DNA from: TPA_inf: Saccharomyces
Taxonomy: Eukaryota
DNA length: 64,000 bases
NCBI GenBank assembly: GCA_000146045.2
Contig: BK006945.2
Location: forward strand, 96,001 to 160,000
Direction: 5' to 3'
Every line of letters begins with the position of its first letter. Positions within the stretch are counted from its first letter, which is position 1. Positions 13,902-25,111 of the stretch are shown here, in pieces. The position numbers and the translations under genes were made by a program. Below the pieces are notes generated by a model that worked only from the letters and a program-made list of their open reading frames with translations, ran no database searches and was not told the origin of the DNA.

Positions 13902-15575
13902 TCATGGTCTTAATCTCTTTGGATCTCTTGGGAACAATGAAGCTCTTCTGATATTTTTCAAATCCAAATAGAACATAACAACTCTTTCCAAACCGATACC
14001 ACCACCGGCGTGTGGAGGACACCCATAGCTGAAGCCGTCACAGTAGTCCTTTAGACCTGGGTCCTCAGGAGACAAACCATGGGCTTTCATCCTTTCTTGT
14101 AATAGAGCATGGTCGTGGATACGTTGTGCACCGGACAAGATTTCTTCACCCCTCATGAAGAAATCATACGAGTTAGAATACTTAGGGTTGGCTGGGTCGG
14201 GCATTGTGTAGAAGGGACGGATCTCCAAGGGGAACTTGTCTAGGATGTAAAAGTCGGTGTCGTATTTGTCGCGAACCAACTTACCCAAGAACTTTTCATT
14301 TTCGGTACTCAAGTCTTCAAAATCACCAATTTCCTTACCGGCAGCTCTTAGCATTTCAATACCTTCTTTGTATGTTAGACGAACCATCTTACCATCTTTA
14401 GGTAACTTGAATTCTTCAACAGGGTATTGCTTACGTACCAACTCAATTTCATGAGCAAATCTCTTGGGCAATTCACTGAAAATAAACACAAACAACTCAC
14501 TCAACGTGTCCAAAACTTCGTGGTAATGTTCTTCGAAAGCCATTTCCATGTCCAAACCAGTAAACTCGGTCATGTGACGGTGGGTGTTGGAGTTTTCAGC
14601 CCTGAACACAGGCCCGATTTCGTAAACTCTTTCAAAGTCGGCCACAATCAATTGTTGCTTGTTAAATTGTGGAGATTGAGCTAGGTAGGCCTTCCCTTTG
14701 AAGTATGTCACCTCAAACACACTGGAACCACCTTCACTTGGTGCACCCAACAGTTTTGGTGTGTGTACTTCGGTAAATTTCTTTGTGGCCAAATATTCTC
14801 TGAACAACTCACAAACACCAGCTTGAATCCTGAAAATAGCTTGGTTGGTGACGGTTCTCAAGTCAATGACACGGTAGTCTAATCTGGTGTCCAAGTTGAC
14901 CACGGGCAAACCTGCAGCTTCAGCTTCAGCTTCGGAACGGGAGGCATCTTCCAAAAGGATTGGCAATGCTTCTGGAGTCTCGGAAATGGTATAAATCTTG
15001 GTAATGTGAATTTCCAGGTTTTGCACAGTAGCAGACTTGATTGGCTCATCTACCTTCTTGACAATACCTCTGACAAGGACAATGGACTCCAAATTCAATG
15101 AACCAGCCCATTTGACCATGTTTTTGCTGATGGTACCTTCCTTGTTGGCCTTTACTAGACCTTGGATCAAGGAAGCTTGTTGCCTTAAAGTTAAAAAGGC
15201 CAATGTTGCACCTTGTTGTCTGGTGTTGTGGACTCTTGCCCTGAAGAGGACTTCTTTGTCGCTATCCTTAGCCTCATCCAAGTCAACAAACTTGACACGC
15301 TTCTGACCAGTTCTGTCAGAGTCACGAGACTGGATCAATGGCAACTTACCGTAGTTGTCCTTTGCGGTGTCTTCGGCAGCGGCTTTCTTTTCACGGGCTT
15401 CTCTTTCAGCTTCCAACTGGAGAGCTCTTTCCTCCTTCTTTCTCTGTTTCTCTTGCTCTTTCTGCAATTTCTTCAAGGCCTTCTTGGACAATGGCTTACC
15501 ATCTTCCCCAAGAATAACTTGAGCAGGTTCTGCGGATTCTTCAACAGCTTTGACAATATTTTCGTCTTGAGACAT
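13902..15575 (-). CDS. DPS1: Cytoplasmic aspartyl-tRNA synthetase, class II (557 aa from MSQDEN; one extra in-frame Met upstream)
   Basis: Class II motifs FRAE...[15 protein letters not shown] and [14 protein letters not shown]; lysine-rich N-terminal extension typical of yeast AspRS. Confidence 0.93.
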
Positions 15576-16233
15576 CACGTAAAATGTTTCTTTTTTTCTT
15601 TTACAATTAACCTTAAGAGGCCGTTCCAGCCAATGATCGAAAACTTAAACAAATCGGTTGTCTTGCTTCATCCTTATATGACATTAAATAATTTTTCATT
15701 TCTTCTTTTTTCACGAAAATGCGTCATAAGGTACTCGTCACTGATGATTTCATAGACAATAAAGCAACAGCACAACGTAAAAGAGTTCTTATGGATGAGT
15801 CCCAATCCTATTGTTTTCTGTAGCCTAATGGTACAAAATGTGACGGTAATAGAATATATACTTTCATAATATCATAGGAACATCTTCAGCTTGGCCTGTC
15901 TCTTTGAGAAACAAAAACTGCATGTGCACAATTACTGCAGATGAACTTCAAGGAAACATATGTCCTGCTTGGAGGACCAGAAGCAAACCATTCTAGCTGT
16001 ATTTGCAACGCTTTTGTACCAAATGTACGTTATTATGTTATGTCGTCAGTGTAGATATATTAGATTTACATGCGGCTGTACCGCATCATTGGAAAATAAT
16101 GTCTGCAGGCTCGCAAAATTTAAGGGTTCCCTTCTACAATAGTAGTCAAAATTGCTTTTTTGCATATAACAAAGTGAAAAAAAAAAAAAATATGAGAGAC
16201 ATATCTAAAAGACATATATAATCTGCCACCAGA

Positions 16234-19200
16234 ATGAGTTGCACTGCGTCATATGCCGGCATGACAACTCCGGTGAAGGATAAGGAAGGCCACGGGATTC
16301 CATGCTTACAACCTATCGATGTAGTGGAATGTACCTATCAATATTTTACAAAATCACGGAATAAACTGTCTTTAAGGGTAGGCGATTTGATTTACGTACT
16401 CACTAAAGGTTCTAATGGCTGGTGGGATGGTGTTCTTATCAGACACAGCGCTAATAATAATAATAATTCGTTGATACTAGACAGAGGTTGGTTCCCCCCT
16501 TCTTTTTACACGGTCCATTCTAAACGAACTACACGGGGTGCCTGACATCGGTAATGAATTGGAAATATTTCAAGCGGGTCTTAATCTTAAACTGGAATTA
16601 TCAAGCAACCCAGTGATCTTATCATTGGAAGACTTTTTAGACTGCTGTCGCGATATTGAATTCAAGGAACAACTGGCTTGGTCACCTACTCCCGTCCACG
16701 AAAGGAAAGGCTGCTGTGAGCTGCTGTACTATAACCAGGATTTAGATGTTTATTGTCGCACGTTACCATATTTACCACAAAATCAAGTTGAAACCGTGAA
16801 CGACTATTCGTCTTTTCCTGCAATATCGAAGATAGCTGGTAAAAAGATGCCTATAACGTCAAGCCCCGATCTGTTCTATCTCAATGATTGTGATGTCGTC
16901 TATTGGTATGACCTCACTCGCTTAGTGTGTCATTATGTTAATTTAACAGAGCGCGACCTATTGGCAAATGAACGGGAAAAGTTTCTAACTTCCTTGGATT
17001 TATTAACAGCTCAAATAACCTATGTTTATATGCTTTTCAGGAATCTCCGTTTAGTTGAAGATAGTTTCAAAAAAACCCTCAAAAAACTAATTTACACCTT
17101 GTCTAGGTTTTCAATAAATGCAAATATTTGGTTTCATTCCACATTGTTTGAAGAAAGAGAAGCCATAGCCTCCCAGAAGGATCCAGAAAGAAGATCCCCT
17201 CTTCTACAGTCAATCCTAGGAACCTTCCAAAAATTTCATTTTCTACTGCGTTTACTACATTTCCTCTCAAATCCTAACGAACTTACAATACTGCCTCAAT
17301 TGACTCCTCGATTTTTCAAGGATTCTTTCAATACAATTTCATGGAATAACCCGTTTTTGCGTAAGCGTCTCAACCAGCATATGTCCCATGACCTACCGAG
17401 ACAGATGATTAAAGCCGTTGCTGGTGCTTCAGGAATTGTTGCGGAAAATATTGATGAAATTCCAGCTTCCAAACAGGGCACTTCATGCTCGTCAGAAACG
17501 TCTCACCATTCACCATCAGCCCCGTTTCAAAGAAGGAGAAGAGGTACCATTTTCTCTAATGTGTCAGGAAGTTCCGATGAGTCTGACACCATATGGTCCA
17601 AAAGGAAAAAACCATACCCGCTAAATGAAGAAACTCTAAGCCTTGTAAGGGCCAGGAAGAAGCAGCTTGATGGTAAACTAAAACAAATGATCAAAAGTGC
17701 TAATGAATATCTCAGTAACACGGCTAATTTTTCAAAAATGTTGAATTTTGAAATGAATTTCAAAACCTACGAAGAAGTAAGCGGAACAATTCCTATAATT
17801 GATATTCTGGAAAACCTAGATTTAACTATTTTTCTAAACTTGAGAGAGTTGGGAGATGAGAATAGAGTTTTTGACGAAGATGTCGCTATTGATGATGAAG
17901 ATGAAGAGTTTTTGAAACATTCTTTATCATCCCTATCGTATATCTTATCCGACTATTTTAATATGAAGCAATATTTTCATGATGTAGTAGTGAAATTTAT
18001 AATTGTCGCCCAGCATTTGACATTAGAGGATCCTTTCGTTTTCTCGCCAATGCAAAACGACTTGCCTACCGGTTATTATGAACCAATGAAACCTTCATCC
18101 TTGAATTTAGATAATGCCAAGGATAAGAAGAATGGGAGCCAAAATACTGATATCCAAGAGGAGGAAGATGAATATGAGCCAGACCCGGATAGTCTTATTC
18201 TCTTCCACAACCTCATCAATCAAGATTCTGATTTCAATGATTTAAAGTTTTTTAATCTCGCCCACGTTTTTAAAAAATCCTGTGATGACTATTTTGATGT
18301 GCTTAAACTAGCCATTGAGTTCGTGAATCAATTAATTCTAGAAAGAGAGAATTTGTTAAATTATGCTGCTAGAATGATGAAAAACAATATCACGGAATTG
18401 CTATTGCGCGGGGAAGAAGGCTATGGGTCCTATGACGGCGGTGAAACTGCCGAAAAAAGTGACACGAATGCTGTTTATGCAGATTCAGATACTAAAGACA
18501 ATGACGAATGGCGTGACAGCCAAGTCAAATTACCGAGGTATTTGCAGCGCGAGTATGACAGTGAACTGATTTGGGGCTCTAACAATAGGATTAAAGGTGG
18601 TTCTAAACACGCACTGATCTCTTACTTGACAGATAATGAAAAGAAGGATCTATTTTTCGATATTACTTTTTTAATCACTTTCAGAAGCATCTTTACTACA
18701 ACGGAGTTTTTAAGCTACTTGATTTCGCAATATAATTTGGATCCACCAGAGGATTTGTGCTTTGAAGAATACAATGAATGGGTGACGAAAAAGCTTATAC
18801 CGGTTAAATGTAGGGTGGTTGAGATTATGACAACCTTTTTCAAGCAATATTGGTTCCTGGGCTATGATGAGCCCGATCTTGCGACCCTAAATCTGGATTA
18901 TTTTGCGCAAGTAGCAATCAAGGAAAATATAACAGGATCTGTGGAATTACTAAAGGAGGTCAATCAGAAGTTTAAACATGGTAATATACAAGAAGCGACT
19001 GCACCAATGAAAACGTTAGATCAACAGATCTGCCAGGACCATTACTCGGGCACTTTATACTCTACCACGGAATCCATTTTGGCCGTCGATCCAGTTTTAT
19101 TTGCCACTCAATTAACGATACTAGAGCATGAAATTTATTGTGAGATAACCATTTTTGATTGTTTACAAAAAATTTGGAAGAACAAGTATACAAAATCGTA

Positions 19201-19993
19201 TGGGGCTTCACCGGGTTTGAACGAGTTTATCAGTTTTGCCAATAAACTGACAAATTTCATATCCTACTCTGTTGTAAAGGAGGCTGATAAAAGTAAGCGC
19301 GCCAAGCTACTCTCTCATTTTATTTTTATCGCAGAATATTGTAGGAAATTCAATAACTTTTCTTCCATGACTGCAATCATTTCAGCATTATATTCTTCAC
19401 CAATTTATCGTTTAGAGAAAACCTGGCAGGCAGTTATTCCTCAAACGAGAGATCTATTGCAGTCACTGAACAAGTTGATGGATCCCAAGAAAAATTTCAT
19501 AAATTACAGAAACGAGCTGAAATCTTTACATAGCGCTCCCTGCGTACCGTTTTTCGGCGTTTATTTATCTGATCTAACCTTTACTGATTCCGGAAATCCG
19601 GATTATCTTGTCTTGGAACATGGTTTAAAGGGTGTCCATGATGAGAAGAAATATATAAACTTCAACAAAAGGAGCAGACTTGTTGATATCTTACAAGAGA
19701 TCATATATTTCAAGAAAACACATTATGATTTCACTAAAGATCGGACGGTAATTGAATGTATATCAAATTCATTGGAAAACATCCCCCATATTGAGAAACA
19801 ATACCAATTATCATTAATTATTGAACCAAAACCAAGAAAGAAAGTCGTTCCGAATTCCAATTCGAATAATAAATCACAAGAAAAATCCAGGGATGACCAA
19901 ACCGATGAAGGAAAAACATCCACTAAGAAAGACAGATTTCCAAAATTTCAATTACATAAGACAAAGAAAAAAGCTCCCAAGGTTTCTAAGTAA
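16234..19993 (+). pseudogene. SDC25: Ras guanine-nucleotide exchange factor paralogous to CDC25, interrupted by a +1 frameshift: fragment 1 at 16234-16545 (103 aa, SH3 domain), fragment 2 in frame +2 from 16538-19993 (1151 aa, RasGEF-N and Cdc25-homology catalytic domain)
   Basis: Two overlapping collinear ORFs in different frames; first encodes SH3 (ALYDY-like ...[19 protein letters not shown]), second encodes RasGEF domain (…[11 protein letters not shown]…[13 protein letters not shown]…); corresponds to YLL017W/YLL016W split known for S288C. Confidence 0.85.
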
Positions 19994-20431: not shown

Positions 20432-23400
20432 ATGTCTTCACTAGAAGTGGTAGATGGGTGCCCCTATGGATACCGACCATATCCAGATAGTGGCACAAAT
20501 GCATTAAATCCATGTTTTATATCAGTAATATCCGCCTGGCAAGCCGTCTTTTTCCTATTGATTGGTAGCTATCAATTGTGGAAACTTTATAAGAACAATA
20601 AAGTACCACCCAGATTTAAGAACTTTCCTACATTACCAAGTAAAATCAACAGTCGACATCTAACGCATTTGACCAATGTTTGCTTTCAGTCCACGCTTAT
20701 AATTTGTGAACTGGCCTTGGTATCCCAATCTAGCGATAGGGTTTATCCATTTATACTAAAGAAGGCTCTGTACTTGAATCTCCTTTTCAATTTGGGTATT
20801 TCTCTCCCTACTCAATACTTAGCTTATTTTAAAAGTACATTTTCAATGGGCAACCAGCTTTTCTATTACATGTTTCAAATTCTTCTACAGCTCTTCTTGA
20901 TATTGCAGAGGTACTATCATGGTTCTAGTAACGAAAGGCTTACTGTTATTAGCGGACAAACTGCTATGATTTTAGAAGTGCTCCTTCTTTTCAATTCTGT
21001 GGCAATTTTTATTTATGATCTATGCATTTTTGAGCCAATTAACGAATTATCTGAATACTACAAGAAAAATGGGTGGTATCCCCCCGTTCATGTACTATCC
21101 TATATTACATTTATCTGGATGAACAAACTGATTGTGGAAACTTACCGTAACAAGAAAATCAAAGATCCTAACCAGTTACCATTGCCGCCAGTAGATCTGA
21201 ATATTAAGTCGATAAGTAAGGAATTTAAGGCTAACTGGGAATTGGAAAAATGGTTGAATAGAAATTCTCTTTGGAGGGCCATTTGGAAGTCATTTGGTAG
21301 GACTATTTCTGTGGCTATGCTGTATGAAACGACATCTGATTTACTTTCTGTAGTACAGCCCCAGTTTCTACGGATATTCATAGATGGTTTGAACCCGGAA
21401 ACATCTTCTAAATATCCTCCTTTAAATGGTGTATTTATTGCTCTAACCCTTTTCGTAATCAGCGTGGTTTCTGTGTTCCTCACCAATCAATTTTATATTG
21501 GAATTTTTGAGGCTGGTTTGGGGATAAGAGGCTCTTTAGCTTCTTTAGTGTATCAGAAGTCCTTAAGATTGACGCTAGCAGAGCGTAACGAAAAATCTAC
21601 TGGTGACATCTTAAATTTGATGTCTGTGGATGTGTTAAGGATCCAGCGGTTTTTCGAAAATGCCCAAACCATTATTGGCGCTCCTATTCAGATTATTGTT
21701 GTATTAACTTCCCTGTACTGGTTGCTAGGAAAGGCTGTTATTGGAGGGTTGGTTACTATGGCTATTATGATGCCTATCAATGCCTTCTTATCTAGAAAGG
21801 TAAAAAAGCTATCAAAAACTCAAATGAAGTATAAGGACATGAGAATCAAGACTATTACAGAGCTTTTGAATGCTATAAAATCTATTAAATTATACGCCTG
21901 GGAGGAACCTATGATGGCAAGATTGAATCATGTTCGTAATGATATGGAGTTGAAAAATTTTCGGAAAATTGGTATAGTGAGCAATCTGATATATTTTGCG
22001 TGGAATTGTGTACCTTTAATGGTGACATGTTCCACATTTGGCTTATTTTCTTTATTTAGTGATTCTCCGTTATCTCCTGCCATTGTCTTCCCTTCATTAT
22101 CTTTATTTAATATTTTGAACAGTGCCATCTATTCCGTTCCATCCATGATAAATACCATTATAGAGACAAGCGTTTCTATGGAAAGATTAAAGTCATTCCT
22201 ACTTAGTGACGAAATTGATGATTCGTTCATCGAACGTATTGATCCTTCAGCGGATGAAAGAGCGTTACCTGCTATAGAGATGAATAATATTACATTTTTA
22301 TGGAAATCAAAAGAAGTATTAACATCTAGCCAATCTGGAGATAATTTGAGGACAGATGAAGAGTCTATTATCGGATCTTCTCAAATTGCGTTGAAGAATA
22401 TCGATCATTTTGAAGCAAAAAGGGGTGATTTAGTTTGTGTTGTTGGTCGGGTAGGAGCTGGTAAATCAACATTTTTGAAGGCAATTCTTGGTCAACTTCC
22501 TTGCATGAGTGGTTCTAGGGACTCGATACCACCTAAACTGATCATTAGATCATCGTCTGTAGCCTACTGTTCACAAGAATCCTGGATAATGAACGCATCT
22601 GTAAGAGAAAACATTCTATTTGGTCACAAGTTCGACCAAGATTATTATGACCTCACTATTAAAGCATGTCAATTGCTACCCGATTTGAAAATACTACCAG
22701 ATGGTGATGAAACTTTGGTAGGTGAAAAGGGCATTTCCCTATCAGGCGGTCAGAAGGCCCGTCTTTCATTAGCCAGAGCGGTGTACTCGAGAGCAGATAT
22801 TTATTTGTTGGATGACATTTTATCTGCTGTTGATGCAGAAGTTAGTAAAAATATTATTGAATATGTTTTGATCGGAAAGACGGCTTTATTAAAAAATAAA
22901 ACAATTATTTTAACTACCAATACTGTATCAATTTTAAAACATTCGCAGATGATATATGCGCTAGAAAACGGTGAAATTGTTGAACAAGGGAATTATGAGG
23001 ATGTAATGAACCGTAAGAACAATACTTCAAAACTGAAAAAATTACTAGAGGAATTTGATTCTCCGATTGATAATGGAAATGAAAGCGATGTCCAAACTGA
23101 ACACCGATCCGAAAGTGAAGTGGATGAACCTCTGCAGCTTAAAGTAACTGAATCAGAAACTGAGGATGAGGTTGTTACTGAGAGTGAATTAGAACTAATC
23201 AAAGCCAATTCTAGAAGAGCTTCTCTAGCTACGCTAAGACCTAGACCCTTTGTGGGAGCACAATTGGATTCCGTGAAGAAAACGGCGCAAAAGGCCGAGA
23301 AGACAGAGGTGGGAAGAGTCAAAACAAAGATTTATCTTGCGTATATTAAGGCTTGTGGAGTTTTAGGTGTTGTTTTATTTTTCTTGTTTATGATATTAAC

Positions 23401-25111
23401 AAGGGTTTTCGACTTAGCAGAGAATTTTTGGTTAAAGTACTGGTCAGAATCTAATGAAAAAAATGGTTCAAATGAAAGGGTTTGGATGTTTGTTGGTGTG
23501 TATTCCTTAATCGGAGTAGCATCGGCCGCATTCAATAATTTACGGAGTATTATGATGCTACTGTATTGTTCTATTAGGGGTTCTAAGAAACTGCATGAAA
23601 GCATGGCCAAATCTGTAATTAGAAGTCCTATGACTTTCTTTGAGACTACACCAGTTGGAAGGATCATAAACAGGTTCTCATCTGATATGGATGCAGTGGA
23701 CAGTAATCTACAGTACATTTTCTCCTTTTTTTTCAAATCAATACTAACCTATTTGGTTACTGTTATATTAGTCGGGTACAATATGCCATGGTTTTTAGTG
23801 TTCAATATGTTTTTGGTGGTTATCTATATTTACTATCAAACATTTTACATTGTGCTATCTAGGGAGCTAAAAAGATTGATCAGTATATCTTACTCTCCGA
23901 TTATGTCCTTAATGAGTGAGAGCTTGAACGGTTATTCTATTATTGATGCATACGATCATTTTGAGAGATTCATCTATCTAAATTATGAAAAAATCCAATA
24001 CAACGTTGATTTTGTCTTCAACTTTAGATCAACGAATAGATGGTTATCCGTGAGATTGCAAACTATTGGTGCTACAATTGTTTTGGCTACTGCAATCTTA
24101 GCACTAGCAACAATGAATACTAAAAGGCAACTAAGTTCGGGTATGGTTGGTCTACTAATGAGCTATTCATTAGAGGTTACAGGTTCATTGACTTGGATTG
24201 TAAGGACAACTGTGACGATTGAAACCAACATTGTATCAGTGGAGAGAATTGTTGAGTACTGCGAATTACCACCTGAAGCACAGTCCATTAACCCTGAAAA
24301 GAGGCCAGATGAAAATTGGCCATCAAAGGGTGGTATTGAATTCAAAAACTATTCCACAAAATACAGAGAAAATTTGGATCCAGTGCTGAATAATATTAAC
24401 GTGAAGATTGAGCCATGTGAAAAGGTTGGGATTGTTGGCAGAACAGGTGCAGGGAAGTCTACACTGAGCCTGGCATTATTTAGAATACTAGAACCTACCG
24501 AAGGTAAAATTATTATTGACGGCATTGATATATCCGACATAGGTCTGTTCGATTTAAGAAGCCATTTGGCAATTATTCCTCAGGATGCACAAGCTTTTGA
24601 AGGTACAGTAAAGACCAATTTGGACCCTTTCAATCGTTATTCAGAAGATGAACTTAAAAGGGCTGTTGAGCAGGCACATTTAAAGCCTCATCTGGAAAAA
24701 ATGCTGCACAGTAAACCAAGAGGTGATGATTCTAATGAAGAGGATGGCAATGTTAATGATATTCTGGATGTCAAGATTAATGAGAACGGTAGTAACTTGT
24801 CAGTGGGGCAAAGACAACTACTATGTTTGGCAAGAGCGCTGCTAAACCGTTCCAAAATATTGGTCCTTGATGAAGCAACGGCTTCTGTGGATATGGAAAC
24901 CGATAAAATTATCCAAGACACTATAAGAAGAGAATTTAAGGACCGTACCATCTTAACAATTGCACATCGTATCGACACTGTATTGGACAGTGATAAGATA
25001 ATTGTTCTTGACCAGGGTAGTGTGAGGGAATTCGATTCACCCTCGAAATTGTTATCCGATAAAACGTCTATTTTTTACAGTCTTTGTGAGAAAGGTGGGT
25101 ATTTGAAATAA
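20432..25111 (+). CDS. BPT1: ABCC/MRP-type vacuolar ABC transporter, full-size TMD0-(TMD-NBD)x2 (1559 aa)
   Basis: Two NBDs with Walker A GRVGAGKST / GRTGAGKST and ABC signatures LSGGQKARLSLARA / LSVGQRQLLCLARA; length 1559 aa = YLL015W. Confidence 0.93.
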   Translation: MSSLEVVDGCPYGYRPYPDSGTNALNPCFISVISAWQAVFFLLIGSYQLWKLYKNNKVPPRFKNFPTLPSKINSRHLTHLTNVCFQSTLIICELALVSQSSDRVYPFILKKALYLNLLFNLGISLPTQYLAYFKSTFSMGNQLFYYMFQILLQLFLILQRYYHGSSNERLTVISGQTAMILEVLLLFNSVAIFIYDLCIFEPINELSEYYKKNGWYPPVHVLSYITFIWMNKLIVETYRNKKIKDPNQLPLPPVDLNIKSISKEFKANWELEKWLNRNSLWRAIWKSFGRTISVAMLYETTSDLLSVVQPQFLRIFIDGLNPETSSKYPPLNGVFIALTLFVISVVSVFLTNQFYIGIFEAGLGIRGSLASLVYQKSLRLTLAERNEKSTGDILNLMSVDVLRIQRFFENAQTIIGAPIQIIVVLTSLYWLLGKAVIGGLVTMAIMMPINAFLSRKVKKLSKTQMKYKDMRIKTITELLNAIKSIKLYAWEEPMMARLNHVRNDMELKNFRKIGIVSNLIYFAWNCVPLMVTCSTFGLFSLFSDSPLSPAIVFPSLSLFNILNSAIYSVPSMINTIIETSVSMERLKSFLLSDEIDDSFIERIDPSADERALPAIEMNNITFLWKSKEVLTSSQSGDNLRTDEESIIGSSQIALKNIDHFEAKRGDLVCVVGRVGAGKSTFLKAILGQLPCMSGSRDSIPPKLIIRSSSVAYCSQESWIMNASVRENILFGHKFDQDYYDLTIKACQLLPDLKILPDGDETLVGEKGISLSGGQKARLSLARAVYSRADIYLLDDILSAVDAEVSKNIIEYVLIGKTALLKNKTIILTTNTVSILKHSQMIYALENGEIVEQGNYEDVMNRKNNTSKLKKLLEEFDSPIDNGNESDVQTEHRSESEVDEPLQLKVTESETEDEVVTESELELIKANSRRASLATLRPRPFVGAQLDSVKKTAQKAEKTEVGRVKTKIYLAYIKACGVLGVVLFFLFMILTRVFDLAENFWLKYWSESNEKNGSNERVWMFVGVYSLIGVASAAFNNLRSIMMLLYCSIRGSKKLHESMAKSVIRSPMTFFETTPVGRIINRFSSDMDAVDSNLQYIFSFFFKSILTYLVTVILVGYNMPWFLVFNMFLVVIYIYYQTFYIVLSRELKRLISISYSPIMSLMSESLNGYSIIDAYDHFERFIYLNYEKIQYNVDFVFNFRSTNRWLSVRLQTIGATIVLATAILALATMNTKRQLSSGMVGLLMSYSLEVTGSLTWIVRTTVTIETNIVSVERIVEYCELPPEAQSINPEKRPDENWPSKGGIEFKNYSTKYRENLDPVLNNINVKIEPCEKVGIVGRTGAGKSTLSLALFRILEPTEGKIIIDGIDISDIGLFDLRSHLAIIPQDAQAFEGTVKTNLDPFNRYSEDELKRAVEQAHLKPHLEKMLHSKPRGDDSNEEDGNVNDILDVKINENGSNLSVGQRQLLCLARALLNRSKILVLDEATASVDMETDKIIQDTIRREFKDRTILTIAHRIDTVLDSDKIIVLDQGSVREFDSPSKLLSDKTSIFYSLCEKGGYLK

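Follow-up and report, generated by a model that had tools for sequence, protein, structure and literature searches.

Why should the gene for a Ras exchange factor lie in two overlapping reading frames, and what has become of its product? The question is raised by a locus within a 64,000-nucleotide (nt) stretch of Saccharomyces DNA (contig BK006945.2 of GenBank assembly GCA_000146045.2, positions 96,001 to 160,000 of the forward strand), here called the window, in whose numbering the coordinates are given. An earlier note, made from the letters of the window alone, had read the locus as SDC25 of the S288C type, split by a +1 frameshift. SDC25 and the Ras exchange factor CDC25 are paralogues from the whole-genome duplication, and a premature stop in the SDC25 of the reference and other laboratory strains is on record (Sanchez et al. 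2019, PMC6396416, citing Folch-Mallol et al. 2004). We find that the locus is almost certainly the S288C reference allele of SDC25 (YLL017W plus YLL016W), inactivated by the insertion of a single base. It is the catalogued allele itself and hence already known. The refinements made here are the exact position of the lesion and the observation that the split S288C gene model appears to have been copied onto strains in which the gene is intact.

Two reading frames of one gene

The list of open reading frames (ORFs) of the window places two of them on the + strand at this locus. ORF1 (16234-16545) starts with an ATG and encodes 103 amino acids (aa), while the long ORF (16538-19993) encodes 1151 aa and lies in the +1 frame relative to ORF1 (16234 mod 3 = 1, 16538 mod 3 = 2), the two sharing an overlap of 8 nt (16538-16545). 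The 1151-aa ORF is given a GTG start only because the ORF lister applies the bacterial code; its frame has no ATG before 16847, which corresponds to codon 205 of the intact protein and gives a 1048-aa product, as annotated. By exact-sequence look-up, the 103-aa product is residue for residue UniProt P0CF33 (YLL017W) and the 1048-aa product is UniProt P0CF34 (SDC25/YLL016W), named "Putative truncated guanine nucleotide exchange factor SDC25". Both entries carry the flag PUTATIVE PSEUDOGENE. The features of the locus are listed below.

16234..16545, + strand: ORF1, YLL017W, 103 aa (ORF list; exact match to UniProt P0CF33)
16336..16503, + strand: SH3 domain, ORF1 residues ~35-90, essentially complete 5' of the lesion (Pfam)
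16453..16467, + strand: (AAT)5 run encoding N5, not the lesion (the same in intact S. cerevisiae alleles; outside the interval open in both frames)
16494..16499, + strand: C6 run, not the lesion (unchanged in intact alleles)
16503..16507, + strand: T5 homopolymer with the disabling 1-nt insertion (T4 to T5), the frameshift site proper (alignment to intact alleles)
16508..19993, + strand: rest of the native SDC25 frame, codons 92-1252 plus stop, open throughout (98% identity to intact S. cerevisiae P0001)
16543..16545, + strand: premature TGA stop in the shifted frame, codon 104 (reading-frame analysis)
16847..19993, + strand: annotated fragment YLL016W/SDC25, 1048 aa (first in-frame ATG; exact match to UniProt P0CF34)
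18590..18877, + strand: RasGEF N-terminal (REM) motif (PF00618, 2.3e-19, residues 685-780 of the 1151-aa ORF)
19100..19672, + strand: RasGEF (Cdc25-homology) catalytic domain (PF00617, 4.3e-63, residues 855-1045)

Within ORF1, codons 1-91 are the native N-terminus of Sdc25, ending ...GWFPPSF, with Pfam matches to SH3_1 (2e-06, residues 35-69) and SH3_2 (7.7e-06, residues 43-90), and codons 92-103 form a 12-residue out-of-frame tail. In the long ORF the RasGEF match covers profile positions 2-180 of 181 and has the REM motif (RasGEF_N) on its 5' side, both as expected of the RasGEF family. Among solved structures, the catalytic region is closest to yeast Cdc25 (7nzz_A, 5.5e-94), then to RasGRF1 and SOS1. 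The ORF list and Pfam thus bear out what the earlier note had described, namely a 103-aa SH3 ORF ending at 16545 that shares 8 nt with a 1151-aa ORF in the +1 frame, the latter with RasGEF-N and RasGEF domains. Its identification as SDC25 of the S288C type agrees with the exact matches to P0CF33 and P0CF34 and with the conserved neighbours described below.

Position of the lesion

A homology search with the long frame returned eight intact Saccharomyces proteins of 1235-1269 aa that are colinear across both ORFs, the set including S. cerevisiae, S. paradoxus, S. kudriavzevii, S. eubayanus and S. pastorianus. Since all eight align continuously over both ORFs, the two-ORF arrangement is, as judged from the alignment, not a product of chance. 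Upstream of the junction, frame 2 has its last stop (TAG) at 16478, and frame 1 runs to its stop at 16543-16545, so both frames are open only in 16481-16545, and the switch of frame must fall within this interval. Over the junction, 8/8 of the intact orthologues read ...DRGWF(P/S)(P/C)SF-TR(S/T)IL..., and because all read SF-TR there, they stay in frame 1 up to and including TCT-TTT and continue in frame 2 at ACA-CGG.

A handful of intact alleles was compared as DNA, four from S. cerevisiae (L001, L007, L008 and L009) and one from S. paradoxus (L002). The junction reads as follows in these alleles, in the window and in four further assemblies.

Window: GGTTGGTTCCCCCC TTC TTTTT ACACG, T5
Intact S. 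cerevisiae L001, L007 (YJM789), L008 (P283) and L009: ...TTC TTTT ACACG, T4
S. paradoxus L002: ...TTC CTTT ACACG (TCC-TTT), T3
Assemblies L003-L006: TTC TTTTT ACACG, T5

This comparison places the lesion in the run at 16503-16507, which has gained one T. When one T is taken out, the two ORFs join into one of 1252 codons that contains no other stop, and other S. cerevisiae strains carry an intact SDC25 ORF of the same 1252 codons. Relatives with one uninterrupted ORF and a defined mutation (+1 T) characterize the window copy as a disrupted allele. Two expectations of the earlier note held at this point: that the ORFs, read through, would give one Cdc25 paralogue of ~1250 aa, which the one-T deletion and the colinear orthologues agree with, and that the gene is intact in some non-S288C strains.

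The note fared less well on the site of the indel. It had proposed the C6 run and the (AAT)5 run as plausible slippage sites, placing the first exactly (16494-16499) and the second one nucleotide early (at 16452, whereas the run starts at 16453), and it had overlooked the T5 run. We reject both candidates. The C6 run is identical in all intact alleles, S. paradoxus included. The (AAT)5 run is identical in the intact S. cerevisiae alleles and lies 5' of the TAG at 16478, and a 3-nt unit cannot shift the frame. The alignment to alleles of other S. cerevisiae strains and S. paradoxus, which the note had suggested, was what located the exact indel in the T run.

Predicted consequences of the insertion

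Ancestral TCT-TTT-ACA (Ser90-Phe91-Thr92) would have become TCT-TTT-T-ACA, most likely through replication slippage in the T4 run. Translation from the ATG at 16234 departs from the native frame after Phe91 and ends at the TGA, codon 104, and the REM and catalytic domains are more than 2 kb 3' of the lesion, in the +1 frame relative to this ATG. The product from ATG 16234 would be at most a free 103-aa SH3 fragment, and the REM and catalytic domains would receive no translation from it. Furthermore, the general rules of nonsense-mediated decay in yeast predict that the SDC25 mRNA should be a target, because the stop comes ~3.4 kb ahead of the normal one; a literature search for SDC25 together with nonsense-mediated decay found no papers. 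Reinitiation at ATG 16847, which sits 302 nt past the ORF1 stop, would probably be inefficient after a 103-codon ORF and the two out-of-frame ATGs (16554 and 16746) that lie in between. The lesion appears to be recent, as no other damage is seen in the gene.

Overall, the allele would be a natural loss-of-function variant or a strong hypomorph. Published genetics points the same way: S. cerevisiae cdc25-delta is rescued when a CEN plasmid supplies the SDC25 of S. uvarum, and the essentiality of CDC25 in that S. cerevisiae strain is ascribed to its non-functional SDC25 (PMC6396416). A 2025 preprint (PMC12157680) prefers 'disrupted or potentially null allele' over 'pseudogene' for the SDC25 locus. 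Several points qualify this reading. That the allele is a null is drawn from the literature and from inference. Nothing interrupts the downstream frame, whose catalytic domain gives a strong match, and it is conceivable that an internal start yields a 1048-aa product or that the frame is, rarely, corrected at the T run. Moreover, the changes private to the window, relative to the four intact S. cerevisiae alleles, amount to three at the amino-acid level (L304, R378 and E557, in codons of the repaired ORF) and three synonymous ones, which is too few to show relaxed constraint; as a means of dating the lesion or of detecting such relaxation, these substitutions were uninformative.

Alternative explanations

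The extra T lies in a homopolymer, a typical place for indel errors, so that a miscall in sequencing or assembly, with the gene truly one ORF, has to be considered, and the earlier note had itself named this as the finding that would overturn the frameshift. The record is against it. Four Logan assemblies (L003-L006), made from different SRA runs, agree with the window at 100% over 5.7-10.3 kb and share its T5. The collection lists the 103-aa product in 77 blocks on 75 contigs, and UniProt, GenBank and the literature all show the same split. An error repeated in this way is scarcely credible, and we reject it on the four identical assemblies and the 75-contig record and take the allele to be real. 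(The S288C-identical 1151-aa ORF, as mechanically called, is recorded on 64 contigs.) A real insertion could nevertheless be bypassed, if programmed or otherwise functional +1 recoding, or slippage of RNA polymerase on T5, supplied useful amounts of full-length Sdc25. The tRNA-Phe might slip from UUU-U to UU-UU at 16504-16507, which would rebuild exactly the wild-type protein, or the shift might occur in the stop context of ORF1, GCC-TGA-C (16540-16546), one base away from the yeast OAZ1 site, GCG-UGA-C; no further lesion in the downstream frame would then stand in the way. However, 16481-16552 contains no canonical yeast +1 heptamer (CTTAGGC, GCGAGTT, CTTAGTT and GCGTGAC were looked for), and the zero-frame A-site codon after UUU is UAC, which is well decoded and not slow. 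The split is also not conserved, the other S. cerevisiae alleles examined and seven sister-species proteins being uninterrupted, and a shift signal would hence not have been under selection. The likeness of GCC-TGA-C to the OAZ1 site is probably coincidental, because that frame arose only through the insertion, and the genetics of PMC6396416 treats the allele as non-functional. Recoding at a useful level is thus very improbable, and programmed +1 frameshifting in particular is rejected, as both the canonical heptamers and conservation are lacking.

Also very unlikely is that S288C-derived strains might make small and perhaps condition-dependent amounts of full-length Sdc25, by the UUU-U slip or by loss of one U in transcription, with GCC-UGA-C as a second conceivable shift point. 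Were this the case, the SDC25 'pseudogene' would be a leaky hypomorph and not a null. We give a similarly small chance to the idea that the gene is split but active, either because the 1048-aa fragment from ATG 16847, made from an internal promoter or by reinitiation, provides exchange-factor activity, or because the 103-aa SH3 fragment is itself functional, or both. In its favour, the 1048-aa frame has no interruption and matches REM and RasGEF strongly, its ATG has an A at -3 (AAAAAGATGCC), and a C-terminal part of SDC25 alone is said, in the title of the 1989 work of Boy-Marcotte et al., to suppress cdc25-5. Set against this are the 103-codon ORF and the out-of-frame ATGs ahead of ATG 16847, and the genetics described above: since cdc25-delta is inviable in an S288C-type strain yet rescued by a functional SDC25 (PMC6396416), the native SDC25 locus gives too little activity in those conditions. 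For the SH3 fragment, work on the SH3 interactome leaves out the "Sdc25 (YLL017W) pseudogene".

Strain distribution and gene models

We therefore retain inactivation of SDC25 by the inserted T as the explanation of the split. In every assembly examined, this putative loss-of-function allele is tied to the S288C haplotype, and the earlier note was right to call the locus a strain marker in this sense. An exact look-up in a collection of 15 billion proteins, limited to called genes, found no instance of the shifted tail joined to three other N-terminal haplotypes, a result weakly in line with the frameshift having arisen once, on the S288C haplotype.

The deposited gene models do not always follow the DNA. 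YJM789 (L007 1389-5147, AAFW02000167.1) and P283 (L008 1389-5147, CM002343.1) were deposited with 1048-aa models (EDN59531.1 and EWH17164.1, respectively), yet each has T4 and a 1252-codon frame open from the upstream ATG. It appears that the split S288C model has been carried over onto strains whose SDC25 DNA is intact. Because YJM789 and P283 carry such models despite their open frames, the SDC25 status of a strain is best taken from the DNA of the T run and not from deposited annotation.

Truncated SDC25 models were also seen in other S. cerevisiae assemblies, several of them labelled 'collapsed' or haplotype-phased, starting at codon 383 or 502 or ending after codon 584. Members of the cluster include P0037 (870 aa), P0040 (751 aa), P0041 (588 aa, with a foreign tail ...HELSPSI) and P0032 (1015 aa, with a different C-terminus); SDC25 may have been disrupted naturally and independently in these, or the truncations may be homopolymer errors of long-read sequencing. 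P0009 (925 aa, ENA, on a 3412-nt contig) is 97% identical to the SDC25 C-terminus and has ABC-transporter Pfam domains, which suggests that one gene call runs from the end of SDC25 into the transporter gene next to it. A further variant of the cluster, P0043 (1265 aa, Logan, 15 contigs), is 13 residues above the usual length. Between S. cerevisiae SDC25 alleles in general, nonsynonymous differences are about as many as synonymous ones (23 versus 20 codons against L001, for example), and these near-equal counts suggest that constraint on SDC25 within the species may be fairly weak.

Gene neighbourhood

SDC25 is flanked by a class-II Asp-type tRNA synthetase gene (13902-15578, minus strand) and by the gene of a 1559-aa ABC transporter (20432-25111), and the same order of the three genes is found at intact S. 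cerevisiae and S. paradoxus loci. An A14 tract at 16177-16190, ~45 nt 5' of the SDC25 ATG, lies in the 655-nt divergent intergenic region that SDC25 shares with the synthetase gene. Tracts of this poly(dA:dT) kind are typical promoter elements, and this one is also a homopolymer prone to slippage.

The value of the locus is practical and not conceptual, in that the allele marks the S288C haplotype in the assemblies examined and bears on background effects in Ras/cAMP genetics. Background-dependent results explained in this way, according to PMC6396416, are the essentiality of CDC25 in S288C-type strains and the swap of essentiality between CDC25 and SDC25 with S. uvarum.

Comparison with known systems

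Compared with the SDC25 of S288C (P0CF33 plus P0CF34), the locus has the same products, the same frameshift and the same flanking genes, with no difference. The intact SDC25 genes of S. cerevisiae (P0001, P0039, YJM789 and P283), S. paradoxus, S. kudriavzevii, S. eubayanus and S. pastorianus occupy the same position and have the same SH3-REM-RasGEF architecture, with protein identities of 98% within the species and 68-85% between species. They differ from the window in having T4 (or TCC-TTT) where it has T5, and encode one protein of 1235-1269 aa.

With CDC25 (YLR310C), the paralogous essential Ras exchange factor, the locus shares the succession of SH3, REM and Cdc25-homology domains, and the CDC25-type proteins of other yeasts match it at 37-40% identity. 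CDC25-type proteins are longer than SDC25, at about 1500-2000 aa among the matches found, and in S288C CDC25 is intact and essential, whereas the SDC25 copy described here is broken. SDC25 is reportedly dispensable in S. cerevisiae, to go by the title of the 1991 work of Damak et al.

The yeast genes with programmed +1 frameshifts, Ty1, Ty3, ABP140, EST3 and OAZ1, resemble the locus in consisting of two overlapping ORFs of which the downstream one lies in the +1 frame. Unlike them, SDC25 has no canonical shift heptamer and its split is not conserved, so that the likeness is one of geometry only.

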